This document shows positions 11,420 through 52,771 of a DNA stretch of 55,242 nucleotides, piece after piece. The number at the start of each line of letters is the position of its first letter. Within the stretch, counting starts at the first letter, position 1. The position numbers and the translations under genes are program-made. Source of the DNA: Vampirovibrionaceae bacterium NZW_1234. GTDB lineage: Bacteria > Cyanobacteriota > Vampirovibrionia > Vampirovibrionales > JAGQHJ01. The stretch lies in the NCBI GenBank assembly GCA_041697335.1, contig JBGUGD010000022.1, positions 1 to 55,242 on the forward strand. Reading direction: 5' to 3'. The notes below the pieces were generated by a model. It was given only the letters and a program-made list of their open reading frames with translations. It searched no databases and was not told the DNA's origin.

Positions 11420-11887
11420 TTAGACAGTGTTCTTGGAAAACCGGATTCGGGAAGCGGGAAGCAACTCGGCTAAAACAGCCGGTGCTTGGTGGGTTTGGGT
11501 CAGAAGCCATTTGGATTTTTGAATAAAAATGCCGACCGTCTCCTTGACGGCACCCAGTACGGCTGAAAAGAGGGTTTTGGCTTCTTCTCGTAGTTTTTGA
11601 GCCGTATATCCGTCTCGACCCGAAAGCGTTAGGGTTAGCCCGGCAACATTTTCTCTTGAAGGCCTTGCATCTCCTGCTGTGCTGGAATCCCTGGCTTCGG
11701 CATAAACATCCATGACGCCTTTCCAGATCTCCGGTACGTCTGAGAGTGAAAGCTTCTGCCCCCGACCCGAAGGATCCGCCGCATTCAGCGTAAATCGCCG
11801 GGTTTCTCCGATTGATGAAAGCGCCGCACCAAAGCGACATCCAACTGGCATCATAACCCTATTCCTCACATCGCTTCCAACCGCCAT
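11420..11887 (-). CDS. Hypothetical protein
   Basis: 155-aa ORF filling the gap between pilD and the repeat protein; N-terminal CRFG. Start uncertain. Confidence 0.5.
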   Translation of the reverse strand: MAVGSDVRNRVMMPVGCRFGAALSSIGETRRFTLNAADPSGRGQKLSLSDVPEIWKGVMDVYAEARDSSTAGDARPSRENVAGLTLTLSGRDGYTAQKLREEAKTLFSAVLGAVKETVGIFIQKSKWLLTQTHQAPAVLAELLPASRIRFSKNTV

Positions 11888-12075
11888 CCGTTTCCCCGAC
11901 GGATGATATCACTATTAAACATCCTCAAGGGACGATCTGACTAGAATGTATGCTTTTAAAAAGAAACAACTCTTAACAAATAGCGGTATGGAAACGCAAT
12001 TTTACGAAGTGTGTATATTTTATTTATATAAATAGTATTTTAGGGTTTTTGCTCTGTAGGGTGAAAGGTCCAGGT

Positions 12076-13371
12076 ATGGCCTATTTTCTGGATTATGCGA
12101 ATAACAACACGGGACAGCCGGTCTATGCAATTACCATGGCGTATCCCAGTGATCAGGATGCCGGAGCCACGGCTCCGTTGATGTACACCAAGGCCTACCC
12201 CAGCGATGATGGTGTTCAAGTCCCGCCGGATTATCAGTACTTCACTCAAAAAGCCCCGAGTGATAACGAAACCGGGACCCAGCCGCCTGCCAATCAGCAG
12301 CCGATTGCGGTGACAATGAAGTACCCCAGTGATCAGGAAGGCGGAGCGACAGCGCCTCAAGAGCCAATTTATTATGCAACGGACAAGTATCCCAGCGATC
12401 AGGAGACCGGTGTCACCCCTCCTCTCTACCAGACTCGGAAGTACCCCAGTGATCAGGAAGGCGGCGTCACTCCACCTCAGGAACCGCCCATTGCAACGAC
12501 GTTAAAATACCCCAGTGACCAGGAAACCGGAACACCTCCACCCGCGGGGCCTCCCATTGCGGTCGGTCTTCCTCCTTATCAGGAACCGCCACCCATTGCG
12601 GTTGGTATTGTTGTTCAACCTCCCTATCAGGAGCCACCGCCTATTGCCGTGGGTATCGTGGTTCAACCACCCATAGGTACTAAGAAATATCCCAGTGACC
12701 AAGAAACCGGGACGCCGCCTCCCCAGGAGCCACCGGTAAATACGACACGGAAATACCCCAGCGATCAGGAGACGGGAACGCCTCCCCCACAAGAACCGCC
12801 AATTTACGTGACACTTAAGTATCCCAGTGATCAGGAGACGGGAACACCCCCGCCTCCCCAGCCGCCCATTTCGGTTACTCGGAAATACCCGAGTGATCAG
12901 GAAACCGGGACGCCGCCTCCAAATCCATGCCCTATTTATGTCACGCTAAAATTCCCCAGTGATCAGGAGACCGGGATGCCGCCCCCAATGCCCGCTCCAA
13001 CACCGCCCTCACCTCCACCGTCTGGTACATGCCCACCCGGATCGGGTGGTTCTGGTACCGTGGTGAAAAAGAAAAGTGATATCAAGAAATTTCTGTTGTT
13101 TTTCTTATTGTCCAATGGCATCCGTGGCCCCGCAGGGCCCGGTCGAGGTCGTCCTACCGGAGGGTTTGCCACGGTATTAAACTTTTTGCTGTTTAAGAAG
13201 TTGTTTAAATCCAAGTCGAGTGACACGATAACGCAGGTCGTCAGTAACTGTTCGACTGCAGGAAGTGTACAAGATACCACTGCAACACAACACAACGTTG
13301 TTGTTGGTGGCGTTAATATTGGGAATAACTTTGGAACTGCAGGCAACTTTATCAACAATATTCATCTCTGA
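12076..13371 (+). CDS. Multi-core microviridin/marinostatin-like (graspetide-type) precursor-like protein with 12 TxxxPSD cores
   Basis: ATG at 12076 after GAAAGG. Twelve T-x-[KA]-[YFA]-P-S-D units separated by Pro-rich spacers; TxKYPSD is the microviridin core consensus. Confidence 0.8.
   Translation: MAYFLDYANNNTGQPVYAITMAYPSDQDAGATAPLMYTKAYPSDDGVQVPPDYQYFTQKAPSDNETGTQPPANQQPIAVTMKYPSDQEGGATAPQEPIYYATDKYPSDQETGVTPPLYQTRKYPSDQEGGVTPPQEPPIATTLKYPSDQETGTPPPAGPPIAVGLPPYQEPPPIAVGIVVQPPYQEPPPIAVGIVVQPPIGTKKYPSDQETGTPPPQEPPVNTTRKYPSDQETGTPPPQEPPIYVTLKYPSDQETGTPPPPQPPISVTRKYPSDQETGTPPPNPCPIYVTLKFPSDQETGMPPPMPAPTPPSPPPSGTCPPGSGGSGTVVKKKSDIKKFLLFFLLSNGIRGPAGPGRGRPTGGFATVLNFLLFKKLFKSKSSDTITQVVSNCSTAGSVQDTTATQHNVVVGGVNIGNNFGTAGNFINNIHL
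12133..12969 (+). repeat. Imperfect coding repeat array (TxKYPSDQETGTPPP)
   Basis: Recurrent TA(C/T)CCCAG(T/C)GA(T/C)CAGGA(A/G) with synonymous variation. Confidence 0.9.
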
Positions 13372-13529
13372 CGGCGAAGTGCTTGTCCGCGCTGAGTCTC
13401 TACCATCTTGAAGATCCGTTAAACGGTCGATCTGATGGGTGTCCTGGATACTTTAGAGTGGTATCAAGGTCCCGTAGGATTTAGAGATATACCTCCTAGA
13501 CCAGCCGGAAGGCTTTTTTAAGGAACCTC

Positions 13530-14255
13530 ATGAATCGCCCGTTTTATCTGATTTTTGCCGCCTCGGTGGCGTTAATGGTGTCCGGTGCCGTGACATTGCT
13601 GACGCATTTTTCGGTGTTGTTCTTCTTGACGTTGGGCGCCGCACTGTTCTGTCTGGTCATGGGGGTTAAGGTGATGCAGGATCATCTGTCTCTGCGAACT
13701 CCCACCCGCTCCCTGCTCTCCATTCTCCAGGACTTATTGAAGAGCCAGAAGCAGCAAATTGTTATGGTGCTCCCTGTCAGGGCCAGTGGGCACTTGAATG
13801 CGGCCACCCATATGGGAGGTTTGCTTAACCAGTTTGGGCGAGAGGCCATCGTAATTGATATTGACTTGTGTCACCGGTTGTTGAGCCGGAAAATTCCGGT
13901 GGAGCACCCCTATGGGGTTTACGAGCATCTCTTAAACGCCGGCATGAAAAAGCCCTATCTGGATCCCTTGTCCGGGGCCAAAGTGGTACCCTTGGAGACT
14001 TCCCTGGAAGCAGACAAGGTGGTCGAGTTTTCGCAAATCATGCAGCGCCTGCCCCGCCTATGGGAGCGTTGGCCCACCTCTATTATTGTGCTTGATCTGT
14101 CCCAATGGCATGAAACCTATCACCAGATTCTGTCCCATGTGTCTCAGGTGATATTTTATGTGCCGCCCGGCTATGATGCCGATACGCTGCTGCCCAAGAT
14201 ATTTCGTAAAAAGTACCGGGTTCCAGTCAGTCTGGTTGAAATTCAACCAGATTAA
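13530..14255 (+). CDS. Membrane-anchored CpsD/CapB (BY-kinase/MinD-like) fold protein with degenerate P-loop
   Basis: Two N-terminal TM helices; GREAIVIDIDL resembles GKKVLLIDADL; the Walker A position reads PVRASGHL with no GK[ST]; IIVLD resembles Walker B. Confidence 0.6.
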   Translation: MNRPFYLIFAASVALMVSGAVTLLTHFSVLFFLTLGAALFCLVMGVKVMQDHLSLRTPTRSLLSILQDLLKSQKQQIVMVLPVRASGHLNAATHMGGLLNQFGREAIVIDIDLCHRLLSRKIPVEHPYGVYEHLLNAGMKKPYLDPLSGAKVVPLETSLEADKVVEFSQIMQRLPRLWERWPTSIIVLDLSQWHETYHQILSHVSQVIFYVPPGYDADTLLPKIFRKKYRVPVSLVEIQPD

Positions 14256-14441
14256 CCACTTTGCCTCTGCCAGATTCTGTAAACACATGTTCGTGAGAAT
14301 CGCTGTAAAAAGGCCGTTTTACAGGATTGGGAATGTTATCGGACTCACTTTCCCAAGGGATTTTATGGATGAATTTGCGAATAAACCTTGCCCTCTGGTG
14401 AGAGCCATTTATAATAAAACTTAACATCCCCCCTCTTAATT

Positions 14442-14483: not shown

Positions 14484-14623
14484 GTGCCGCTTCTGTTTTG
14501 TTTCCCAAGCGATCTGATAAAGAGCCCCGCGTCTGGACTTTTTGGGCTCAAGCTGCTCTTGGTAATCCCGACGGGAATGGGGTATGCTGTTGGGCAGTTG
14601 GACATCGCATGTGCAGGTGACCT

Positions 14624-15976
14624 ATGACAGCCCCCTCACAAACCTTTGAAAAATCTGAATCATCCTTAATCCGGCTTTCTCCAGGAGCCAGCGATGCGGA
14701 TCGCATGGCGGCGGTGGGTACAGATTTGTCTCGCTATGAGTGGGTTTATCAGCGACAACACTATGAACCCATCGTTTCAAGGACGAATCGGGAAATCCAT
14801 GTGGCTCTTATGAAGGCTTATGCCCGTGAGTTGATTGGGCAAATTCCAAACCCGTCGATGATGACCCATATCGTAACAACCCGATGCAATTACAGCTGTG
14901 GATTTTGTAGTTTTGCAGATACGTTAAATGCCAAATCAAACGAGTTGTCGCTGGAAGAGATTGAGAAAACCTATGCCACGTTGGGTGGCAATATGAATAC
15001 GATTGTCTATTCCGGTGGGGAAACAACGCTTCATAAGAATCTGCCGGAAATTATCGAGGCGGCTTACCGCTTAACGCCGGTCAAATCAGTCTATATCATT
15101 TCCAACGCATGGAAGCCGGATCGGCTGTTTCAGATTACCCATCAGATCATGCAGACGTGTCCCGATCTGCATTTAACCTGGAGCTTGAGCATTGAAGGTC
15201 CCAAGCCGGTGAACAATGCCGCTCGCTATACCCATAACAGCTCGTGGGATGCTTGGCAAAATACCATTGATACCATGTGGGGGCTGAAGAAGATGCGCGA
15301 GCGCTTCGGATACTCTCAGTTAGACGTACAGTTGTGCACGGTCTGTGGCCCCAATAACGTGGCTGTTCTGGACGAATGGTATGAAATGGTTCGCGACGTT
15401 CTGCAGCCGGACAAATGGAATCTGAATTTATTACGTCGCAGTGTTCAGATGACCCAGCACGAACTGGGCACATGGGAAAGCCGACGGGCCTCCAAAACCA
15501 TGGAACCCTTTGAACAAAAATATGTGGCCATTACCCAGCGTGTACGGGATGATGTCCTCTCGGGAAAACTGAAATTTCGCTATCATACGCAAAATGCCTT
15601 TGAAGGCAGTATGAAATCGGCCGTGGATCTCATCAGCCAAGCCGATAACCGCCGTATTCTCCATGGCCAGGAGCCGGCCATCTGTTGCAAAGCGGCCTTT
15701 CATGGGGCTTATATCGGAAGCGACGGGGAGGTCAGTGGGTGTGAAGAATTTGCCAATAACCCGCTTGAAGGCAAGTCCTTTGGTAACCTCAGAGAGGTGA
15801 ACTATGACTTTCAGGCTCTCTGGCGCTCGGATAAAGCTAAATCCTATCGGGCGCAAGTGGGTAACGCTCGCGAGTGTTATGGCTGCACGTTGGAAAGTCA
15901 GAAAAATTACCCTTCGATTTTAGTTTCCTTTAAGCACTTGTGGGATGCCCAAAAGCTGGCACGCCAAATCCATTAG
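14624..15976 (+). CDS. Radical SAM protein with C-terminal Twitch/partial SPASM domain
   Basis: CNYSCGFC (CxxxCxxC); SGGE; C-x12-G-x4-C (CKAAFHGAYIGSDGEVSGC), FGNL and CYGC in the C-terminus. Confidence 0.9.
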   Translation: MTAPSQTFEKSESSLIRLSPGASDADRMAAVGTDLSRYEWVYQRQHYEPIVSRTNREIHVALMKAYARELIGQIPNPSMMTHIVTTRCNYSCGFCSFADTLNAKSNELSLEEIEKTYATLGGNMNTIVYSGGETTLHKNLPEIIEAAYRLTPVKSVYIISNAWKPDRLFQITHQIMQTCPDLHLTWSLSIEGPKPVNNAARYTHNSSWDAWQNTIDTMWGLKKMRERFGYSQLDVQLCTVCGPNNVAVLDEWYEMVRDVLQPDKWNLNLLRRSVQMTQHELGTWESRRASKTMEPFEQKYVAITQRVRDDVLSGKLKFRYHTQNAFEGSMKSAVDLISQADNRRILHGQEPAICCKAAFHGAYIGSDGEVSGCEEFANNPLEGKSFGNLREVNYDFQALWRSDKAKSYRAQVGNARECYGCTLESQKNYPSILVSFKHLWDAQKLARQIH

Positions 15977-17460: not shown

Positions 17461-18732
17461 ATGGGACTCGAATCAAAGGCGTTACAAAAATTAGGGCTGA
17501 TAATGCTAATGGTGTTCAGTTTGTCACCGCCATTCATCGGTGTAGCGACAGCATCAGAGCCAATTACGCCACTGGAAATGGCAGTGTTTGGGAAAAAATT
17601 CGAGCAGGAACCTCTTTTAGTGAGGGTTCAACGTCTGGAACGCGCCTTGAATCAGAAGGCTGTCCCTACGAGCTCGCTGTCATATCGAATTTCCCGCCTG
17701 TATGCAGTCCAGAAACAGCAGGCTGCCAGTGCAAGCCAAGCCCAGGCCATTCAGTTCTACAATAAAGGTGTTGATGCCTATGAGCAGAAGCAGTATGAGC
17801 AGGCTGTTGCGTCATATGAAAAAGCCATTGCCCTGAATCCGGATCTGATCCCTGCCTATAATAACCTGGGAAGCTTGTTGGAACAGTTGGGCCAATATTC
17901 CAATGCACTTCAGGTCTATCAGAAGGCCATCCTGTCTGATCCGAAAAATCCGCTCCTGGTTCGAAACCTCGCCATTATGTATGAAAAAACCGGTAAAATC
18001 GAAAAGGCACTTGACTATTATCGTCACTACATTGCTTTGGAACCATCACCAGACCCGAATATTGCTCGGATTGTGAGTGAGTATGATACAGCACGCCGAA
18101 AATATCAGAATTTGGTGGATTACGCAGCAGTGGCATCGGAAGGTAGTGATGGGAAGACCCTGATTTGGCCGTCTGCAATGATGCCTATTCCTGTTTATGT
18201 TGCTATTGAGGCGGATCAGGGGCCTTTTTTGAAGCCAGTACAAGAGGCATTAGCGGCCTGGGAGTCGGCAACATCAGGTCGAATCAGGTTTAGAGAGGTG
18301 GCTCAACCAGAACTTGCCCGAATTCACATCATACTGCAGGATGGGCCATTATCACATCCCTATCTTGAAGTGGGACATGCCAGCTTCGCGTTTGATGCGA
18401 GCACCGGGAAACAGGACCGGAATCTTCACGTGAATGTCACTGTGAATACGGGTGAACGCGATGCCCCTATTTCCCTAACCGATAGGCTGTCACAAGTCAG
18501 GAGGCTTGCCTTGCATGAGATAGGTCATGCCATTGGCATTTGGGGACACAGCCCTGACCCGGCCGATGTGATGTATGCCCAACCCATTGCTGAAAAATTA
18601 TCATCAAGAGATGTCATTACCATTCAGCGTTTGTATGGCATCTATTCCGGTGATTCTGCGGTGACCCGGGCCAGGCGGCGTGTCTTACAATCGTTCGATC
18701 GTCCCGCCTTCGACCGATCCCGTAAACCGTGA
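17461..18732 (+). CDS. TPR-containing matrixin-like (metzincin) zinc metalloprotease
   Basis: Signal peptide, TPR units, HEIGHAIGIWGHS...DVMY zinc motif with Met-turn; RBS AAGGAGG. Confidence 0.9.
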   Translation: MGLESKALQKLGLIMLMVFSLSPPFIGVATASEPITPLEMAVFGKKFEQEPLLVRVQRLERALNQKAVPTSSLSYRISRLYAVQKQQAASASQAQAIQFYNKGVDAYEQKQYEQAVASYEKAIALNPDLIPAYNNLGSLLEQLGQYSNALQVYQKAILSDPKNPLLVRNLAIMYEKTGKIEKALDYYRHYIALEPSPDPNIARIVSEYDTARRKYQNLVDYAAVASEGSDGKTLIWPSAMMPIPVYVAIEADQGPFLKPVQEALAAWESATSGRIRFREVAQPELARIHIILQDGPLSHPYLEVGHASFAFDASTGKQDRNLHVNVTVNTGERDAPISLTDRLSQVRRLALHEIGHAIGIWGHSPDPADVMYAQPIAEKLSSRDVITIQRLYGIYSGDSAVTRARRRVLQSFDRPAFDRSRKP

Positions 18733-27866: not shown

Positions 27867-27896
27867 GAAGGGTATCAGTAATTGAAGGTCGAATTC

Positions 27897-28343
27897 ATGA
27901 CAATGAACCCCTACGCTGCTGCTAATTCTGCTGCCAACTATCGGGCACAACAGATCCAAACTGCCAGTAAGGAGCAGTTATTGATTATGTTGTTCGAAGG
28001 GGCCATTCGTTTTCTGAATTTGGCCAAGGCTGGGCATGAAGAGCAAAATGTGGAGAAATTTCACAACAACATTATTAAAACCCAGCGCATCTTGATGGAG
28101 TTTATGACCACGCTGGACTTTGATGTTGGCGGTGAGATGGCTCAAAATCTGTTCCAGGTCTATGAATACCTTCATTATCAATTGGTTCAGGCCAATATCA
28201 AGAAAGATGTTAAAATGATAGAAGAGGTTCAGAGCCACCTACGTGAGTTGAAAGAGACGTGGGAGAAGGCAATCCTGATTGCGAAACAGGAATTGAAACC
28301 TCAACCGTCAATGACGAGTACTGGGAATGTCTACAGCGTCTAA
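27897..28343 (+). CDS. fliS: Flagellar export chaperone FliS
   Basis: YRAQQIQTASKEQLLIMLFEGAIRFL, TLDFDVGGEMAQNLFQVYEY, LKETW. Confidence 0.95.
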   Translation: MTMNPYAAANSAANYRAQQIQTASKEQLLIMLFEGAIRFLNLAKAGHEEQNVEKFHNNIIKTQRILMEFMTTLDFDVGGEMAQNLFQVYEYLHYQLVQANIKKDVKMIEEVQSHLRELKETWEKAILIAKQELKPQPSMTSTGNVYSV

Positions 28344-28695
28344 CTGGCCTAATATTGAAGAAAGTCTTCGTAAACTCATTCAGCTGTCTCAAGCCATCCT
28401 GGCGTGTGGCGATCAGGAAATGGACAAAATGCAAAAGCTCATTAATGAGCGGGAACCTTGGATTGCGCGATTAACATCGTGTAAACCCGGAAGTTTGCTG
28501 CCGCAACATGAGGCTGCCCTGGACCGGATGGTTGCGGAACTTCAGGAAATTGATGCCAAAGTCCAGCAAAAGCTTGAAAGTCTGCATAAACAGCAGTCTG
28601 ATAACCTTGGGCAGGTCAATAAAGGCAAACAGGCCTTGAATAGCTATCGATTCCCTTATTCCTCCAGCAGTGAAGGCCTTGAAGGTAAAGGCTGA
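28327..28695 (+). CDS. FliT-like helical flagellar chaperone (putative)
   Basis: 122-aa helical ORF overlapping the fliS stop; KLINERE and ALNSY patterns; position typical of fliT. Confidence 0.55.
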   Translation: MSTASNWPNIEESLRKLIQLSQAILACGDQEMDKMQKLINEREPWIARLTSCKPGSLLPQHEAALDRMVAELQEIDAKVQQKLESLHKQQSDNLGQVNKGKQALNSYRFPYSSSSEGLEGKG

Positions 28696-33813: not shown

Positions 33814-35547
<1,734 letters not shown>

Positions 35548-35613: not shown

Positions 35614-38600
35614 ATGAGTATCCTCTCACCCAGTAATAAATCCAGCAAAAAGAACATTGATTTTCTCAACCACGTGATGAACAAGAAAGCTCTGAGTTCT
35701 TTGTTGTCTCGGGTGTACGATGAGTACGGCGGTGCTAAGACCGGTGCATTGGCTAACCTGCTTAAAGATTTAGGCTTTAAGTATGCGACTTTGGCTGGTG
35801 TAACCATCTCTATTAGTGATCTGACTGTACCGCAAGCCAAAAAAGATATTTTGGCCAATGCCGAGTCCGAGATCGACCGGGCGACTCACCGGTTTGCCAA
35901 GGGCGAAATCACGGAAGTTGAGCGTTACTCTAAGGTAATCGATACCTGGGCGCAAGCCACAGAAGTCCTCACTAACGAGGTTGTCGACAAATTTGACCGG
36001 ATGAACCCCGTATACATGATGGCCTTCTCTGGTGCTCGGGGGAACATTTCTCAGGTTCGTCAGCTTGTTGGTATGCGGGGCCTGATGGCTGATGCGCAAG
36101 GCCAAATTATCGACTTGCCGATTAAAACCAACTTCCGGGAAGGGTTAAGTGTAACCGAGTACATTATTTCCAGCTACGGTGCACGTAAAGGTCTGGTAGA
36201 TACGGCGTTAAAAACCGCTGACTCTGGGTACCTGACCCGTCGTCTGGTGGACGTTGCTCAGGACGTAATTATTGAGGAAGAAGATTGCGGTACAACCAAA
36301 GGGATTCCAATGGCTGGGATCTCTGACGGCGGTAACGAAATCGTTTCCCTAAAAGAGCGTTTGATTGGCCGTACCGCTGCCGTGCATATCACCGATGAAG
36401 AGGGTGAGATCCTGGTCGCTGCGGGTGAAATTATTACGCCCAAAGATGCCGAGGTCATCGTGAAAACCGGTACCAAGGAAGTTTCGGTTCGCTCCGGTTT
36501 AACCTGTGCCAGCCCCTATGGTGTTTGCCGTCGTTGTTACGGCTGGTCACTGACCAGTAACAAGCTGGTTGATATGGGTGAAGCTATTGGGATTATGGCT
36601 GCACAAAGTATCGGGGAGCCTGGTACACAGCTGACCATGCGTACCTTCCACACCGGCGGTGTATTTAGCGGTTCAACCAACATTGAACAGATTAAGGCAA
36701 CCTTGGCTGGAACCCTGGCCACCGATGTGCCGGTTCGTGAGTTCCGGACTCGTCACGGGGATGTGGTACAGGTAACCACCCGTGATTATGTCATGGAAAT
36801 CAAAACCGAAGACGGCAAATCAGTAAAATACAATATTCCTTACAACGCCACGGTCTTCAAAATAAATAAAGGCGATGCCATCAGCGCAGGCGAAGTAATT
36901 GCTGAATTTGAACCGGGTGCCGGTCGTGGTGATGCCCGTCGTTTGACCGAGAAGGCTACCAAGGATATTAAAGCTGATTTACCCGGTGAAATCGTGTTCG
37001 AAAGCTTCGAAGCCGATGAAAAGCGCGATCGCCAAGGAAACATTACCCGGACAGCAAACCGAGCCGGTACCATTTGGATTCTGGGTGGTGAAGTCTATAA
37101 CTTACCCGGTGGTTCCAAACACCAGGTTGAGACCGGTGATGTCGTCAAGACTGGCGATGTTCTGGCTGAAACGATGGTGGTCAGTGAGCATGGTGGGGAA
37201 GTCCGCATTCCGGCGGATTTAACCACGGAGACCGTTAAAGTGGGTGGTGATACCATCGAGAAAATTGTCGATGGTAAAGAATTAACGATTATCATTGCCT
37301 CTACTCGTCCCGACAATGCCACACTGGAAGCCACCAAGAAGGAACAGCTCTGGAAAGTCGAAGATGCTGAAGAGACCTATATTATTAAGTCCCCCGTGGG
37401 CACGATGGTCGAAAATAACAGCATCATTGCTGAGTTAATTGATGAAACCAGCACGGTTCCCTCGAGCGGTGAGATTCGTTATGAAGACATCGAAATTGAT
37501 GAGCAACGGGTGATCACCAAGCCGGGAACGGTATATTTCATCCCCGAAGAGATTCACCAGGTCAGCAAGGATGTGTCCTTGAAAATGGTTGAATCGGGAA
37601 TCTTCGTGGAAGCCGGTACCGAAGTGGTCAAGGATATTGTCACTCGGATCAGCGGGATCGTTGAAATCGTCGAAGACAATGACATTATTCAAGAAGTTGT
37701 TGTCCGCCCTGGCGAAATGCATCGGGTGAAAGATGTTGGCAGCTTGACCGTTGATGATGGCACTGTGGTAGATGCTGGTACTGAAGTGGCCCCCGGTATC
37801 GTTGCTCCTGTGAAATCCATGATCACCATCAACTTCCAGCTGGAAGAGCCGGACGAAGATGATGATGACGATCTGGACATGGAGGATACCTCCAACTACG
37901 AATACGCTGAAGTGCTGATTCGCCCGGTTCAGGAATTCCAAGTGGCGCCACACGACGTGTCGATTAATTTCGACTCTACCGAAGAAAATATCCGCATTGT
38001 TCCGGTGACGCAGTTGGCCTACAAAGATGGCGATAAGATCCGTCAAGTTGAAGGGGCGTCGCTGTTAAGAACCAGCCTGGTGCTTCAAATGGAAGGTTAT
38101 CTCTCTCGCCTGAGAGGGATTGTGGAAGAAGATGCCTCGACTGGTAACCTTAAGATTGCGGTGTTGGAGAACCTGACCATCCGTCGTGAAAGCTCGTCCG
38201 AAGCGACCAAGATGCAAACTGTTACCCAAACCCAGTTGCTGGTGAAAGATGGTGAAGTCATCGACAAGCGTACCCCTGTGGTTAAAACCCAGGTTCTGGC
38301 CCGTAGCAATGGTGTTGTCAGCTTGGGTAATGCCAGCTCCGAGAAAGAAGTTCGCCGGATCATGCTGGTGACCGAAGACCATCGTCACGCGGTGGACATT
38401 AAAGGTGCTGCCAAAGTCAAAGAAGGCGACTATGTCCGTATGGATGACGAAGTGGCCGCCGGTGAATTCGTCTCACTGTCCGGTCGTGTCGAATCCGTTG
38501 AGAAATCCAGCATCGTGATTCGCACCGGTCACCCCTACTTGATTGGGCAAGGGACTCAGCTGCAGGTTGAAGACCACAGCTTGGTTCAGCGAGGTGACTT

Positions 38601-39588
38601 GATCGCAACTCTCGTCTTTGAACGTCAGAAGTCCGGCGATATCGTCCAGGGTTTGCCTCGGGTTGAAGAATTGCTGGAAGGTCGTAAGTCCAAAGAAACG
38701 GCAATTATTGCCTCCTTTGACGCCACCGCACAGATTGAATGGGAAGAAGATGTTCCCAAGCTCTATGTGGTTAGCGAAGAATACGGTCGCCAGGAAGTGT
38801 CTGTTCCCTTGGGGGCAAACATCCTGGTTGAGGATGGCGAGAAAATTGTAAAAGGGCAGCCTCTCACGGATGGTGTGATCAACCCGCACGACATCCTGGA
38901 AATCCTGGGTGTTGAGTCGGTTCGTAAGTACCTGGTGGATGAAGTCCAACGGGTATACCGTTCTCAAGGCGTAGAAATTGCAGACAAGCACATTGAAATC
39001 ATTGTGCGTCAGATGTCCAAGAAGGTGAAAGTCGACGAATCCGGTGATACCCGTCTCTTGCCGGGCGAATTGCTGGATGAGAAAGTTGTTCTGGAAGAAG
39101 CCTCCCGGGCTGAAGAAGCCGGTGGCGCTCCGCCAGAATATCACCCGGTTCTGCTGGGGATTACCAAAGCCAGCTTGAATACGGACAGCTTTATCTCGGC
39201 CGCCAGCTTCCAAGAAACTACCCGGGTTCTCACCGAAGCGGCTGTTGAAGGCAAAGTGGACATCCTGCGTGGTCTGAAGGAAAACGTGATTATCGGTCGC
39301 TTGATTCCTGCCGGGACAGGCTTCCCGCACTTCAAAGACGAGCGGGCCGATATGCTTGATGATCAATCCGGGGCGGCTCGGTTCACAGCTCGTAAGCCTT
39401 CAGCCATTCTGGAAGAAATCGAAAGCATGTTCGGATCGCCTGAAATCTCCGAAGAAACTTTGGGTGAGTTGATGTTGGATGATGAAGATCTCATCACCGA
39501 CGACATTCGCTCCGGAGATGAGGAAGAATACGGCGATGGCGACGATGATGATTTTGGTGATGATGACTTTGGTGATGATGACGAGTAA
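35614..39588 (+). CDS. rpoC2: RNA polymerase beta-prime C-terminal subunit with large SI3 insertion
   Basis: TADSGYLTRRLVDV, GEPGTQLTMRTFHTGG, a long insertion, DIVQGLPRVEELLE, SFISAASFQETT. Confidence 0.98.
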   Translation: MSILSPSNKSSKKNIDFLNHVMNKKALSSLLSRVYDEYGGAKTGALANLLKDLGFKYATLAGVTISISDLTVPQAKKDILANAESEIDRATHRFAKGEITEVERYSKVIDTWAQATEVLTNEVVDKFDRMNPVYMMAFSGARGNISQVRQLVGMRGLMADAQGQIIDLPIKTNFREGLSVTEYIISSYGARKGLVDTALKTADSGYLTRRLVDVAQDVIIEEEDCGTTKGIPMAGISDGGNEIVSLKERLIGRTAAVHITDEEGEILVAAGEIITPKDAEVIVKTGTKEVSVRSGLTCASPYGVCRRCYGWSLTSNKLVDMGEAIGIMAAQSIGEPGTQLTMRTFHTGGVFSGSTNIEQIKATLAGTLATDVPVREFRTRHGDVVQVTTRDYVMEIKTEDGKSVKYNIPYNATVFKINKGDAISAGEVIAEFEPGAGRGDARRLTEKATKDIKADLPGEIVFESFEADEKRDRQGNITRTANRAGTIWILGGEVYNLPGGSKHQVETGDVVKTGDVLAETMVVSEHGGEVRIPADLTTETVKVGGDTIEKIVDGKELTIIIASTRPDNATLEATKKEQLWKVEDAEETYIIKSPVGTMVENNSIIAELIDETSTVPSSGEIRYEDIEIDEQRVITKPGTVYFIPEEIHQVSKDVSLKMVESGIFVEAGTEVVKDIVTRISGIVEIVEDNDIIQEVVVRPGEMHRVKDVGSLTVDDGTVVDAGTEVAPGIVAPVKSMITINFQLEEPDEDDDDDLDMEDTSNYEYAEVLIRPVQEFQVAPHDVSINFDSTEENIRIVPVTQLAYKDGDKIRQVEGASLLRTSLVLQMEGYLSRLRGIVEEDASTGNLKIAVLENLTIRRESSSEATKMQTVTQTQLLVKDGEVIDKRTPVVKTQVLARSNGVVSLGNASSEKEVRRIMLVTEDHRHAVDIKGAAKVKEGDYVRMDDEVAAGEFVSLSGRVESVEKSSIVIRTGHPYLIGQGTQLQVEDHSLVQRGDLIATLVFERQKSGDIVQGLPRVEELLEGRKSKETAIIASFDATAQIEWEEDVPKLYVVSEEYGRQEVSVPLGANILVEDGEKIVKGQPLTDGVINPHDILEILGVESVRKYLVDEVQRVYRSQGVEIADKHIEIIVRQMSKKVKVDESGDTRLLPGELLDEKVVLEEASRAEEAGGAPPEYHPVLLGITKASLNTDSFISAASFQETTRVLTEAAVEGKVDILRGLKENVIIGRLIPAGTGFPHFKDERADMLDDQSGAARFTARKPSAILEEIESMFGSPEISEETLGELMLDDEDLITDDIRSGDEEEYGDGDDDDFGDDDFGDDDE

Positions 39589-39780: not shown

Positions 39781-42288
39781 TTATGAAACCAACACCATGC
39801 CATGATCTTCGGGTTTGAACCCGGGTGGAAACTTTGTTGAGAGGCTGTAGCGAGCGCCATTCAGATTCGCCCCTTCCAAAACAGCGCCGGATAAATTAGC
39901 CCCACGCAAGTCGGCACCAAACAGATTCGCATAGCTCAGGTCGGCGTTGTTGAGATTGGCGCTTTTCAGGCAGCTGCCAATAAGGTTTGCGGCTTTCAGT
40001 TCGGCGGCAGAGAGGTTAGCGTTGGCCAGATGACCACGCTCATAATCCTCTTTCTCAATCCCTTGGTCTTTTAAATACGCTTCAAATTTTCCCAAAATTT
40101 CGGACTGTGTTTCAGGCTTCAGGTTGTTTTGCTGGGCCAGGGATTTTGCAAACTCTGTAACTTTGGTATGGACGTTGACGGGTTCTTCCGAATGAATTGC
40201 TTTCACTTGAACCGAGTTACGTAAGTCAATGCCGTAGATATTGGCCCGCTGTGCATCGATCCATTTGAGATCCAGCAAGGTCAGGCCAAGTTCATCAAAG
40301 GAGGCGCGTGAGATTTGTGTGCCTCTCAAAGTTGCATGGGACAGGTCTGCGTTGCGTAAGGTCGTCGCTGTCATCAGGGCACCCGATAGGTCGGCATGCT
40401 CGAGTTGGGCATCATTCAAATTGGCGCCCACCAGAGAGACCTTAGAGAAGTCCACGTGCTCCAGATGCGTGCCGGACAAGTTTGCATGGGATAAATTGGC
40501 CCCTGTTAGCGTCGCTTCGCGCAGATTGGCACAGGCCAGATCCGCCCCGGCAAAGTTGGCATTTTGTAAGTCAGCATTCACCAGGTTGGCACGGTTCAAA
40601 TTGGCGTCAGCCAAAAAGGCACCTTTCAAGTTCGCGCCAGACAAATCGGCGCTGGCGAGACTGGCGTTAAAGAGATTTGCTTTTTGCAGGTTTGAATCTC
40701 GCAAGTCAGCCCCTTGTAAATTGGCGCCGATGAGCTTGGCTCCGTTCAAATTGGCTTTATTGAGGTTTGCCCCTTCTAAGTTGGCCAGAACCAAGTTGGC
40801 CTGGGTTAAATCCGAACGGCTCAGGTCTGCCGCAATCATCGCAGCACCGTTGAGGTTGGCACGTTTCAAATTACTGCCGCTCATGTCAGTACCGATCAGA
40901 CGGGCGCCCTTGAAATTGGCCTGTTGCAGGTTGGCTTTGCTCAGATCTGTTTGTACCAAGCTGGCCCCTTCCAGATCAGCGTTGCGTAAATCGGCCCCAC
41001 GTAAATTCGCACCGTCCAGGCGTCCGTATTTCAAGTTGGCTTTGCGCAGACTGGCATCCGATAAATTGGCGTTACGCAGATCAACACCGGTTAAATCTGT
41101 TTTCTCAAGATTAACGCCTTTTAGGATGGCCCCTTTGAGATTTGCGCCATCGAGCTTGGCCCCTTTCAGGTTGGCTCCTTCCAAATTCGCATCTTCGAGG
41201 TTTGCATTTCTCAAATCCGCTTTAGCCAGATTCGCGTTACAGAGCATGGCTCCTTTGAGGTTCGTCCTCTCCATGTTAGCCAGCATAAGGTTTGCGCCCT
41301 TCAGGTTGGCGTTTTCCATTTGGGCACTCTGTAGGTTTGCTTCTCGCAGATCAGCATGCTTTAGGGTCGCTTCTCTAAGGTTGGTATGGAAAAAGTCGGT
41401 TTTACGAAGCCATGCGCCGGTGAGGTTGGCACCCTGCAAGTTTGTTCGTTGCAGATTCATTTCTGAAAGATTTTGCTGATGCAAATTTGCTTCTTTTAAG
41501 CTGGCATCCTGTAAATTGGCTTCTCGCAAGTTGGTCTGGGTCAGGTTGGCTTTATCCAGCTTGGCGTCTCGTAAGTCTGCCAGGGTCAGGTCTGCGCCGC
41601 GTAAGACGGCTTGGCTTAAATCGGCATCGCGCAGGTTTGCGCCCATCAGGTTGGTTTCGTTTAAGTGAGCCCCTTTTAAATTGGCGCCTTGCATCTGGGC
41701 CATGCTTAAGTTGGAGTTGCTCAAGATGGCGTCTTGCATGTTGGCCCGGTTGAAATACCCAAATGCCAGGTTCTGAGATCGCATGACCGCACCCTGGAAA
41801 TTTTTTCCATCGGTCATATCTTTGCTGACCTGGTTATAGAAGCCCATTCGCTTTTCAAAAACGGTATTAAGCGTTTGAAGGCCTGTGTTGAACTCGGGCA
41901 GGGTATTTTTGCGCTGCAGGTTCATATACCGAGTGAGCGCCTGGGGCTGGGCTTGAGCCTGGGCCTGCCCTTCACTGCTGAGTTCAAAAGGTAAGGGCAA
42001 GGATAAGTTTCCACTGGAACTGAGCGCCCGATCAACGGTAAGTGGTTCACGGAGTGCTGAAGCATTTTGCTGAAACACGCCAGGGATAACCGTTGAGGCC
42101 GCATGTTCCGATGCGGCTTTCATATATTTCAAGTCCGGGGCTTCACTTAGAAGACCATCACTCTGCTCGCCTTCTTTCGGGATGAAGGCTTTGAGAAGTC
42201 CCCCATAATTTCTGGACAGTTTAACCCAGAGAGGGACATGATGAGGGCGGCCTAAGTCTGTACCGATAGACTCACGATCAGTCATCAC
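39781..42288 (-). CDS. Large pentapeptide repeat protein (835 aa)
   Basis: About 100 A-(N/D)-L-x-x units in a main block plus a second C-terminal block. Confidence 0.95.
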   Translation of the reverse strand: MMTDRESIGTDLGRPHHVPLWVKLSRNYGGLLKAFIPKEGEQSDGLLSEAPDLKYMKAASEHAASTVIPGVFQQNASALREPLTVDRALSSSGNLSLPLPFELSSEGQAQAQAQPQALTRYMNLQRKNTLPEFNTGLQTLNTVFEKRMGFYNQVSKDMTDGKNFQGAVMRSQNLAFGYFNRANMQDAILSNSNLSMAQMQGANLKGAHLNETNLMGANLRDADLSQAVLRGADLTLADLRDAKLDKANLTQTNLREANLQDASLKEANLHQQNLSEMNLQRTNLQGANLTGAWLRKTDFFHTNLREATLKHADLREANLQSAQMENANLKGANLMLANMERTNLKGAMLCNANLAKADLRNANLEDANLEGANLKGAKLDGANLKGAILKGVNLEKTDLTGVDLRNANLSDASLRKANLKYGRLDGANLRGADLRNADLEGASLVQTDLSKANLQQANFKGARLIGTDMSGSNLKRANLNGAAMIAADLSRSDLTQANLVLANLEGANLNKANLNGAKLIGANLQGADLRDSNLQKANLFNASLASADLSGANLKGAFLADANLNRANLVNADLQNANFAGADLACANLREATLTGANLSHANLSGTHLEHVDFSKVSLVGANLNDAQLEHADLSGALMTATTLRNADLSHATLRGTQISRASFDELGLTLLDLKWIDAQRANIYGIDLRNSVQVKAIHSEEPVNVHTKVTEFAKSLAQQNNLKPETQSEILGKFEAYLKDQGIEKEDYERGHLANANLSAAELKAANLIGSCLKSANLNNADLSYANLFGADLRGANLSGAVLEGANLNGARYSLSTKFPPGFKPEDHGMVLVS

Positions 42289-49704: not shown

Positions 49705-50967
49705 TTAGAGATATTTTGACGGCCCCACTGCAGTAATAATCGAGGGTTTACCCATATAGCGCTGGGCCACCTCCTGAACTTCCAACGCCGTTACGGCTTG
49801 GATACGTTCGGGGAGTTGTTCCATTTGCTCCAGAGTTAACCCTAGGGCCACTTGGTTACCAATATAGGTGCATTGTTGCGGGGCGGTTTCGAGATACACC
49901 ACACGGCGGCCGAGGATGTTTTCTTTGGCTTCATCCAGTTCCTGATGCCCAACCGGGTGTTCCATTAATTTTCCACACTCGACTTCGAAGCCTTTGAGAG
50001 CTTTATCCCGATTACTGGGTTCAGTGCCGATATAAAGCATAAAAATCCCCGCATATCGGGAGGATTCGTATTGGCTGCGGACGGTATAGGCTAACCCTTG
50101 CTTATCACGCAATTCAATAAAGAGACGCGATGTTAGACCCGCCCCCCCTAAAATGGTATTGAGCACCACCATGGCCGGGTAATCCGGATGCTCCAGCGGC
50201 GGGGCAAACCAACCTTTATAGATATGGAGTTGGTTTGTATCATCCTTGGCATAGGTGAGGTACCTATCCTCGGGAATTTTCAATTCCTGAGGTGGGTTTT
50301 CGGATTGACGATTCTCGCCCGACGAGGCTTGAAAATATTTTTCAATTTTATCTTTAACCCGATCGACATCGATATCTCCAGCCACGGAAATGAGCATATT
50401 GTTCGGGGTATAGATTGATTTATAGAACGCTTGAAGTGGGGCAACGGAGGTAATTTGAGGAATGGTTTCCAGGATGTTGCTGTGTGATGCTCTGTAGGGA
50501 GAGTCTTTGAACAGCTCGGTCATAAAGATGTCGTGCGAGCGGTTTCTTGGCGAGTCCAACTCCATTACCAATTCGCCATGGAGTCGCACTTTTTCTTTTT
50601 CATAGGAGTCCAAGGTCGAATTGAACAGCATATCGGCCATAAATTCCAATGATGCGTCCAGGTCTTCTTCCAGAAACGTGGCCGACATAATGCTGTAATC
50701 CCGGCGGGTATCATTTTCCAAATCCAGCGACAGGCTGTCCATGTCAATCGCAATTTGCTCGGCAGTTCTCTTCGTGGTGCCTTCTGTCAGTAGATCATCC
50801 ACCATGTCAGCAATCCCAGCTTTGCTCTCCAGTCGATTGCCTCCATGGACATAGATATTCATCGCCACACGCGGGGCACCCTCAAAGGGATGAAAATACA
50901 ATGTACTGCCATTGCTCAGGGAAATTTCCTGGGTGGCTAACATATGACGGGACGTGGAGGTTGTCAT
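49705..50967 (-). CDS. M16 peptidase, non-catalytic subunit
   Basis: M16 fold motifs (EGTTKRT, SRLFIELRDKQGLAY) but no HxxEH. Confidence 0.9.
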   Translation of the reverse strand: MTTSTSRHMLATQEISLSNGSTLYFHPFEGAPRVAMNIYVHGGNRLESKAGIADMVDDLLTEGTTKRTAEQIAIDMDSLSLDLENDTRRDYSIMSATFLEEDLDASLEFMADMLFNSTLDSYEKEKVRLHGELVMELDSPRNRSHDIFMTELFKDSPYRASHSNILETIPQITSVAPLQAFYKSIYTPNNMLISVAGDIDVDRVKDKIEKYFQASSGENRQSENPPQELKIPEDRYLTYAKDDTNQLHIYKGWFAPPLEHPDYPAMVVLNTILGGAGLTSRLFIELRDKQGLAYTVRSQYESSRYAGIFMLYIGTEPSNRDKALKGFEVECGKLMEHPVGHQELDEAKENILGRRVVYLETAPQQCTYIGNQVALGLTLEQMEQLPERIQAVTALEVQEVAQRYMGKPSIITAVGPSKYL

Positions 50968-52331
50968 GCCCCTTCTCCTTTCGGGATCAACACAGCGGTA
51001 TAACAGTTATCCAGGTTAAACCATTTCTTTGCCGCCTCTTGGACATCACTGAGGGTAATTTCCTGAATGACTTTGAGGTAGCGAACATAGCTGTCCAAAG
51101 ACCCACTAACAGTAATGCTTTCACCGACAAATTCTGCAATACCACTTGCGGTTTCAGAAGTTTCGGCAAAATCAACTTTCATTTTCTTGACAGTTCGTAA
51201 AAATTCCTCTTGGGTAATCGGTTTTTCGGACAAGTAGGTCTGAACCTCGTGACACACCTCATCCAGACGAGCCTGGGTGTCAGGGTCACCGAAATTGCCC
51301 TGGATGAAGAATACGTTGCCCAGCTTAAACGTGGATTGTCCTGTGGAAATTGTATTGAATACCGGTTCGCTCGGACGTTCGATGAGGGCTTGGTAAAGTC
51401 GGGAACTCCGACCCTCACCCAGAACCCGGCTGGCAATATCGACGGCAATGGTTTCTTTCAGATCGGAGGGCTTTGGCCCATGAAACCCCATAAGGAAGAA
51501 CGAGGTCTGAAAATCACCACTCAATTCGGCGTAACGATCCCCATTGGCAACCATGTCCGTCGGATAGTCGGGCTGGCCTGTTACATTGGTTACTGTGCGG
51601 TTCTGCTTGGAAAAATCAAAGTGCTCCAGAACTTTGGCTTCCAACCAAACCGGGTCAAAATCGCCCACCACAATGGTGGTTAAGTTTTCAGCCCCATACC
51701 ATTGATGGTAATAGTGCAGAATGTCTTCTCGAGGGATAGAGCCGATAATCTGGCGGGTACCAATGACATCACGCTGGTAGGGGTGGCCTACAGGGTACAT
51801 CATATGGGTCAGCGCATTGTAGATTTTGGTCCAGGGCTGATCCTCACGCATGCCGATTTCTTCAATCACGACGCCTCGTTCACGCTTGTTGGCTGTTGAA
51901 TCGGGATCGGATGGGTCATGTTGCTCTCCGATTTCTTCTTCCGGCAAGGTGGAATACAGCAGCATATCGGCATGCATGTCGAGTGCTTTTACAAAATTCT
52001 TGCCATCCGTACCCTTGGGACCGGTGACATAGTAAAACGTGAAATCTTTCCAAGTGGCAGCGTTAATGACCGCCCCCATACTTTCCATGGCCTTGTCAAA
52101 TTCACCAGGCTGGAAGCGTTCCGTTCCCTTGAACATCAGGTGCTCTAAGAAGTGGGAAACTCCGCTGTTATGGTCGTCTTCATGGATGGAGCCTGTCTTA
52201 ACCCAAGTGCTGATGTTAAAAACTTCCCCTTTTTTGGGCACATAGATAAACTGGTAGCCATTGTCGTAGGTTTTGTGAATTGCTTTTTCCTTGAGATATG
52301 GAATTTCAACGAGCGCTTCCGAGACTGCCAT
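50964..52331 (-). CDS. M16 zinc peptidase, catalytic subunit
   Basis: GVSHFLEHLMFKGT, INAAT, ERGVVIEE; ATG at 52331 after AGAGGG. Confidence 0.93.
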   Translation of the reverse strand: MAVSEALVEIPYLKEKAIHKTYDNGYQFIYVPKKGEVFNISTWVKTGSIHEDDHNSGVSHFLEHLMFKGTERFQPGEFDKAMESMGAVINAATWKDFTFYYVTGPKGTDGKNFVKALDMHADMLLYSTLPEEEIGEQHDPSDPDSTANKRERGVVIEEIGMREDQPWTKIYNALTHMMYPVGHPYQRDVIGTRQIIGSIPREDILHYYHQWYGAENLTTIVVGDFDPVWLEAKVLEHFDFSKQNRTVTNVTGQPDYPTDMVANGDRYAELSGDFQTSFFLMGFHGPKPSDLKETIAVDIASRVLGEGRSSRLYQALIERPSEPVFNTISTGQSTFKLGNVFFIQGNFGDPDTQARLDEVCHEVQTYLSEKPITQEEFLRTVKKMKVDFAETSETASGIAEFVGESITVSGSLDSYVRYLKVIQEITLSDVQEAAKKWFNLDNCYTAVLIPKGEGA

Positions 52332-52771
52332 CCCTCTGTCCAATCTGTCAAGCTAACGAAACGGTTACCATTATAACGCGAAATTGCTTCAGCGCATGTT
52401 CTCTGGTCTAAAATCGGCGAGGCGAGGGAGCTTGGCGGCAGTTTAATTCACTAATTAAGTTAAAAAAACAGTTTAATATGTTTTTCTTTAACAATTAACA
52501 AAAAATTTAGATTTGATTCGTTTATATATTTGGAAGGGGTCATTAAGAGACCCGATGAAGGGGTAAAGACAGATATAATGGGGGGTATATAGAGCTTAAC
52601 GCAACAATTGGCAATGCGATAAAAGATTTTTAAAATTTAAACGAATCACACCACTGGTGTTTACGGTGTGAACTTCGTCTGTAACTCAGGCTTATAAAGC
52701 GAAGAGTAAAACAGAGAGCGATTTATTCTGTCCAATTGTCCACAGTACACATTGTACCATAACCCATAGCC

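Follow-up and report, generated by a model that had tools for sequence, protein, structure and literature searches.

The stretch of DNA analyzed here (the window) spans positions 1–55,242 of contig JBGUGD010000022.1 from Vampirovibrionaceae bacterium NZW_1234 (assembly GCA_041697335.1; 55,242 nucleotides [nt]), and at positions 12076–13371 of its plus strand it carries a gene for a multi-core precursor of the microviridin type. The frame is open by translation and encodes 431 residues followed by a stop codon. ATG 12076 was favored over an in-frame TTG at 12049 as the start, since AAAGG, preceded by an AT-rich stretch, lies 7–11 nt 5' of this ATG and since every family member has the leader motif described below no more than a few residues from its start. 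The encoded protein matched NF033738 in 10 stretches (113.6 bits against a cut-off of 26; E = 5.1e-33) and PF12559 (73.6 bits against a cut-off of 21; E = 1.4e-20). With matches so far above chance, it is a member of the microviridin/marinostatin precursor family (graspetide group 1), in line with a first-pass annotation that had recognized a microviridin/marinostatin-type multi-core precursor from the letters of the window. Among the sequencing runs listed with matching sequence are 11 DNA runs, labelled as hot springs or microbial mat metagenomes, and no RNA run; contig pieces from four runs (at most two samples) match with 0 differences, no piece covering the whole core array.

The protein contains 12 cores of the T-x-[KA]-[YFA]-P-S-D-x-[ED] type, at residues 20, 38, 57, 80, 102, 120, 142, 202, 224, 246, 268 and 290, and these are exactly the cores that had been listed before. 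Cores 1–7 (12133–12525, plus strand; TMAYPSDQD, TKAYPSDDG, TQKAPSDNE, TMKYPSDQE, TDKYPSDQE, TRKYPSDQE and TLKYPSDQE) are irregularly spaced, at 18–23 residues, whereas cores 8–12 (12679–12969, plus strand; TKKYPSDQE, TRKYPSDQE, TLKYPSDQE, TRKYPSDQE and TLKFPSDQE) follow a regular period of 22 residues (66 nt). Cores 7 and 8 are separated by a Pro-rich spacer with a 48-nt tandem repeat in 2.1 copies (12571–12672, plus strand; PPYQEPPPIAVGIVVQ). The TxKxPSD core motif is present, its ring-forming residues Thr, Ser and Asp included: Thr1, Pro5, Ser6 and Asp7 are invariant in 12/12 cores, Lys3 is present in 10, an aromatic residue occupies position 4 in 11 and an acidic residue position 9 in 11. 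The microviridin motif reads TxKxPSDx(D/E)(D/E) (PMC12848669), and the second acid of this tricyclic type is missing, as position 10 is acidic in 0/12 window cores and in 0/27 cores over all four precursors of the source genome. Gly occupies position 11 in 11/12 cores, E-T-G is found in eight, and Gly-Gly follows two.

At the DNA level, the repeats have diverged, with 69–73% matches for the 66-nt period and 81% for the 48-nt spacer repeat. All four ACN codons are used for Thr in the cores (ACC 2, ACT 4, ACA 3, ACG 3), and Ser, Asp, Pro, Lys, Tyr and Glu are each specified by two codons. Pairwise comparison of core codons, position 2 excluded, yielded 202 synonymous versus 83 non-synonymous differences, bearing out the earlier statement that T, P, S and D are invariant despite synonymous divergence. 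Because the repeats have diverged, the core motif is held by selection rather than by recent duplication. The most variable position is position 2, which in order reads M, K, Q, M, D, R, L, K, R, L, R and L (R and L three times each, K and M twice each, Q and D once each).

A Pfam scan of 36 open reading frames (ORFs) in the window detected no ATP-grasp domain, as had been remarked, and the first-pass annotation had proposed a genome-wide profile search for ATP-grasp ligases. Whole-genome searches with TIGR04184 and TIGR04185 (MvdC/MvdD-like) retrieved two full-length MvdC/MvdD-like ATP-grasp genes (E 1e-31 to 1e-35), which are the sole matches in the genome and both lie on another contig, C30; a ligase accompanies the window precursor at the genome level only. 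Both enzymes comprise MvdD pre-ATP-grasp and RimK domains, they share 44% mutual identity, and in NCBIfam they score highest with TIGR04187 (152 and 133 bits), a model of ATP-grasp ribosomal peptide maturases. Ligase 1 is encoded on the minus strand of the C30 locus, L005, at 14607–15515, and is followed by two minus-strand precursor genes: one at 13874–14407, 200 nt downstream, with six TMKAPSDDESG cores behind QYFFDYAQ, and one at 13197–13658, 950 nt downstream, with five T.KFPSDQEGG cores behind MSGYFLDYAS. The latter matches the window gene most closely, with an identity of up to 60% over 97 residues. A gene for a 355-residue protein of no family follows (11817–12884). Ligase 2 (L005 5165–6094, minus strand) is located 9 kb from ligase 1. 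Between the two ligases are clustered genes for PAS histidine kinases and response regulators, and a gene for an FtsH-like AAA/M41 protease is located directly upstream of ligase 1. A fourth, stand-alone precursor on contig C14 (about 88800–89400, minus strand) has four T[NQ]AWPSD cores behind MSNLYFLRYT, with no Lys3 and with Trp at position 4. With two graspetide-type ligases and two sister multi-core precursors on C30, the earlier designation of the window gene as an orphan finds no support at the level of the genome.

Of the structures in the PDB, that of the plesiocin enzyme PsnB (7drm) was nearest to both C30 ligases (E 1.8e-37 and 9.8e-29). MdnC, MdnB, AMdnB and CdnC rank after PsnB, MdnC ahead of MdnB for ligase 1 and the reverse for ligase 2, by small margins. 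A group-1 type core thus seems to be paired here with ligases outside the MdnB/MdnC branch. A complex prediction for ligase 1 (9-row alignment) with precursor residues 1–45 gave a score of 0.01 (mark, 0.32) and counts neither way.

We then considered the distribution of such genes in related genomes. Regular-expression and protein queries yielded 13 precursors in 8 genomes of the lineage, the source genome (G000) included. For seven of the 13, an ATP-grasp gene is located no further than about 1 kb away, namely for the two on G000:C30 and those at G004:C91, G008:C5, G023:C7 (adjoining three tandem ligases), G034:C18 and L024. The other six are on contigs without a ligase match, the contig end being too close to judge for two of them. 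A survey of the order covered 41 genomes including G000, all of them kin, with ligase 2 (E ≤ 1e-25) and a C30 precursor as queries. Ligase matches were found in 27/41 genomes and precursor matches in 7/41, and all seven precursor-positive genomes are ligase-positive, with a precursor match in 0/14 ligase-negative genomes, figures that among kin genomes are a description and not a test. A genome-wide search with NF033738 hit 3/41 genomes and, within G000, only the window gene; because it missed precursors found by the other queries, we did not use it for claims of absence.

Consistent with the earlier description, 19 residues precede core 1 of the window protein and the literal PFFARFL motif is absent. 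It had been suggested from this that the precursor might be leaderless, and here we arrive at a different view, as residues 3–8 (12082–12099, plus strand) form the hexamer YFLDYA, a candidate divergent PFFARFL-type ligase-docking motif that is common to the ligase-linked precursors of this genome. The six-frame translation of the genome, 7.4 million residues in all, contains the pattern YF[LF]DYA three times, in each case just upstream of cores, and the second C30 precursor has the very hexamer of the window protein. N-terminal motifs of this family are present in 13/13 precursors from the 8 genomes: YFLDYA/V in G000 and at a Candidatus Gastranaerophilales locus, YFLNYA in G004, YFLNFA and YMLQFA in G023, YLLNFA in G001, YFIQYA in G008, YMLGFP in G034, PFISYA in G033 and YFLRYT at G000:C14. 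YFLDYA retains the aromatic-aromatic-x-x-aromatic pattern, and PFISYA, YFIQYA, YFLNYA, YFLRYT and PFFARYL are intermediates towards PFFARFL. The last of these comes from public proteins (handles P0024, P0025 and P0027) that start with M-K-[VI]-Q-PFF[AS]RYL, placing the motif at residues 5–11. In known systems, the PFFARFL helix binds and activates graspetide ligases (PMC7823629, PMC8939145). Because of the graded variants in relatives and the occurrence of PFFARYL at the same N-terminal position in public proteins, we read YFLDYA as a probable divergent, N-terminally placed version of this helix. On sequence grounds, the window gene is a member of a precursor subfamily of non-photosynthetic cyanobacterial relatives (Melainabacteria/Vampirovibrionia-type genomes). 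Within the lineage, most G001 and G023 cores do carry an acid at position 10, as do nearly all cores of public multi-core proteins.

Class II precursors bear several cores per leader, usually with Gly-Gly sites and C39 peptidase-transporters (PMC13039773). Based on the above results, we suggest that the window gene is probably a satellite, class-II-like multi-core precursor that is cyclized in trans by one or both C30 ligases into bicyclic, marinostatin-like units; modification in trans, one of the options raised previously, is the natural reading because no ligase gene lies nearby. The leader M-A-YFLDYA would recruit one or both ATP-grasp ligases, which would move along the chain and install two side-chain esters per core, Thr1-Asp7 and Ser6-Glu/Asp9, with a maximum of 23 dehydrations over the 12 cores. 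In microviridins, the rings comprise Thr-Asp and Ser-Glu esters and a Lys-Glu lactam (PMC7823629); as position 10 is never acidic and Lys3 has no lactam partner, the units produced here would be bicyclic at most, not tricyclic. In microviridin J, it is the residue between Thr and Lys (position 5) that fills trypsin's S1 pocket, and exchanging this residue redirects the inhibitor to other targets (PMC7823629). Since the equivalent S1-pocket residue, core position 2, is the most variable position of the window cores, one gene would supply a mixed set of serine-protease inhibitor warheads.

Several observations weigh against this suggestion. Docking, trans cyclization, ring pattern and protease inhibition are all inferred. 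The C30 ligases score below all curated cut-offs (about 110–120 bits versus 425–475 for MvdC/MvdD); as PsnB is their nearest solved relative, ahead of MdnC and MdnB, their substrate choice is not readable from homology. The genome encodes two ligases, yet every one of its cores lacks the acid at position 10 on which a lactam of the microviridin type depends. With the C30 precursor query, a precursor match was absent from 20/27 ligase-positive genomes, and no core-bearing ORF was found within about 4 kb at 14/16 further ligase loci examined; either diverged precursors escaped the queries, or these enzymes act on further substrates as well. Because Gly-Gly follows only 2/12 cores, the release route of class II precursors is not evident. 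Finally, the protein ends in a 131-residue tail (12976–13368, plus strand) that is peculiar to the window paralog. In this tail, two short hydrophobic segments rich in Leu and Phe (about 13081–13119 and 13156–13194) lie between a Pro-rich stretch and a Gly/Asn-rich end, and a search of 40 relatives showed no conservation of the tail, only marginal low-complexity matches.

The tail and the scarcity of Gly-Gly could also reflect a different fate of the chain, which might be cyclized and left uncut, presenting as many as 12 inhibitor units along rigid Pro-rich spacers and possibly held at a surface by the hydrophobic tail. We regard such a polyvalent chain as unlikely. It would suit a protein with 71 Pro within residues 1–310, Gly-Gly after only two cores, no C39 peptidase or peptidase-transporter in the window and two hydrophobic segments in a tail that only this paralog has. 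However, the protein has no signal peptide, and its tail lacks a hydropathy window of membrane-helix length; membrane anchoring was rejected, as the best 19-residue mean is 0.87, below that of a classical transmembrane helix. Moreover, Gly at position 11 in 11/12 cores is reminiscent of the relatives' cores that end in Gly-Gly, and the genome does contain seven C39 peptidase matches elsewhere, all of them unlinked and none beside the C30 cluster. Given this Gly residue and the fact that known family members act as small released peptides (PMC7823629), we lean towards release of single units.

The position of the gene among housekeeping genes, far from the ligases, is what would be expected of a duplicate that has drifted away from its enzymes and is now unprocessed or decaying, or of a plain Pro-rich repeat protein. 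The unusual tail and the degenerate first three cores (Ala3 in two, Ala4 in one, and no position-9 acid in core 2) would agree with this. We nevertheless consider decay quite improbable, as the 431-codon frame is intact, T, P, S and D persist in every core under the excess of synonymous differences noted above, the leader hexamer is the same as that of a ligase-linked paralog, and variation is focused on the specificity position, unlike a random spread. Equally, the lack of an ATP-grasp gene in the window, together with a radical SAM/SPASM gene on the same strand 1.25 kb downstream of the precursor (14624–15976), might be taken to indicate that nearby enzymes modify the cores, which would constitute a new class of RiPPs (peptides made on the ribosome and modified after translation) on a microviridin-like scaffold; the first-pass annotation had put forward a new graspetide-type system and neighboring enzymes. 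This is almost certainly not the case. Orthologues of the radical SAM protein (64–74% identity) are kept in 4/5 relatives searched, and in the three with at least 7 kb of flanking sequence no core-bearing ORF is adjacent, the contig of the fourth ending about 0.9 kb from the orthologue. In addition, the relatives' precursor loci share no neighbor with the window, and the window protein has only 3 Cys.

Besides the leader, a second recurrent element was observed in the precursors, a Leu/Gln- or Leu/Phe-rich, helix-like stretch of 12–20 residues that mostly ends in x-Gly, as in QILQRLQVLLNLLKG and SLMSLLNRMQDLLTQFQARWG, and is positioned C-terminally or between cores. It is present at window positions 13081–13194, at L005:13197–13260, in L009, L010, L024, L080 and L094, and in the public proteins P0024, P0027, P0028 and P0035; it was evident in 6 of the 8 precursors inspected first and was seen in several later ones. 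This element may act as a signal for export or cleavage, or as a further site for docking. One may picture lineage precursors with two docking elements, the N-terminal YFLDYA-type leader and the Leu/Gln-rich helix, through which one chain could be engaged by different ATP-grasp paralogs, by a peptidase or by an exporter, the 12-core protein being kept whole as a polyvalent inhibitor with six specificity residues. We think this unlikely; if true, it would represent a natural leader-plus-follower graspetide and a new use of microviridin-type units.

Among characterized systems, class II AMdnA with AMdnC/AMdnB resembles the suggested arrangement in having one leader, tandem TxKxPSD cores that an ATP-grasp ligase would process in succession, and matches to the same Pfam and NCBIfam precursor models. 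AMdnA of Anabaena sp. PCC 7120 bears three cores on one precursor and is distributively processed by AMdnC (PMC5934393), and class II has been defined by 'up to five' cores (PMC7823629, PMC13039773). The window protein differs by its 12 cores, its 19-residue leader with YFLDYA in place of PFFARFL, the lack of a position-10 acid, Gly-Gly after only 2/12 cores, the 131-residue tail and ligases that are encoded on another contig and are nearer to PsnB/TIGR04187 than to MdnC/MdnB. Dispersed genes have a precedent in a microviridin leader protease encoded 0.8 Mb from its cluster (PMC13039773).

Marinostatin is a bicyclic, two-ester member of the family with a T..YPSD core and no lactam, and it inhibits serine proteases. 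The window cores share the T..YPSD pattern, two possible esters and the lack of a lactam. In contrast, marinostatin has a single core behind a PFFARFL leader (PMC7823629), whereas the window cores keep Lys3 in 10/12 cases without a microviridin-type partner. The plesiocin pair PsnA2/PsnB is comparable in that PsnB is nearest to the C30 ligases and PsnA2 is multi-core; its group-2 cores are TTxxxxEE hairpins, unlike the TxKxPSD cages. PsnA2 requires the leader stretch LFIEDL, of which Phe15 and Asp18 contact the enzyme (bioRxiv 10.1101/2021.03.09.434688). LFIEDL and YFLD have a hydrophobic-Phe-aliphatic-acid pattern in common, a likeness over four residues only, which may serve as a lead.

Further likenesses were found among public proteins from metagenomes and genomes that are annotated only as 'hypothetical protein'. 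P0035 exhibits RYFVNYAQ at residues 7–14, with Pro-rich spacers between its T.K[FY]PSDNETG cores; it lacks an acid at position 10 and has a Leu/Gln-rich helix at the C-terminus. In P0024, P0025 and P0027, residues 5–11 read PFFARYL or PFFSRYL. These short-leader proteins and P0028 contain 3–6 cores and no long tail. The precursor of the Melainabacteria-type locus G023:C7, with its MTDRYFLNFA leader and 7 cores, falls into the subfamily of the window gene, and the ligases there into the clade of the C30 ligases; three tandem ligases adjoin this precursor, whose cores keep an acid at position 10, whereas the window precursor is solitary, with 12 cores that lack the acid. Multi-core microviridin precursors are already known, and core numbers above 12 are already in public data, where six proteins have 15 cores behind a PFFARFL leader. 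In the full-text literature search, whose scope left key mining papers outside, no pairing of Melainabacteria with graspetide or of Vampirovibrionia with microviridin was found. Melainabacteria and microviridin do occur together in four papers; in one of these, the mentions have nothing to do with each other.

The region around the precursor gene is of a housekeeping nature, with genes for L10/L12, rpoB, a split rpoC, EF-G, glyQ, hemA/hemC and fliS/fliT. The precursor is flanked by a 241-residue ORF with a hydrophobic N-terminus (13530–14255, plus strand), and the 785-nt gap 5' of it contains a 155-residue ORF (11420–11887, minus strand); neither has a Pfam or NCBIfam match. An Rfam search of the window returned one tRNA only and no match in the 785-nt stretch. 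The radical SAM/SPASM protein belongs to no close curated family, its best match being NF033640 (48.7 bits against a cut-off of 170). Further along lie a TPR protein whose C-terminal domain is a matrixin (M10) metalloprotease (17461–18732, plus strand) and an M16 peptidase gene pair (49705–52343, minus strand), for neither of which a link to the precursor was found, and a gene for an 835-residue protein made up nearly entirely of pentapeptide repeats (39781–42288, minus strand; PF00805, 465 bits). A role of neighboring enzymes was considered for the radical SAM/SPASM protein, the TPR proteins, the TPR-matrixin protein and a prepilin peptidase and was rejected, as the window and the relatives' precursor loci have no neighbors in common. 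As in cyanobacteria, two genes (33829–35547 and 35614–39588, plus strand) encode the split β' subunit of RNA polymerase, and the window also has the flagellar genes fliS/fliT (27882–28695, plus strand); together these are consistent with a non-photosynthetic sister lineage of cyanobacteria.

The finding does not open a new class of system, and the gene is a well-preserved one. For engineering, a 19-residue leader followed by 12 cores with varied specificity residues offers a compact natural template for inhibitor libraries. Cluster-based genome mining would overlook satellite precursors of this kind, given that 6/13 lie on contigs without a ligase. For the family as a whole, the results suggest that the microviridin-type inhibitor genes of the non-photosynthetic cyanobacterial sister lineage form a distinct subfamily, with a very short divergent leader, ligases of another enzyme branch, bicyclic-only cores and precursor genes dispersed from the ligases.

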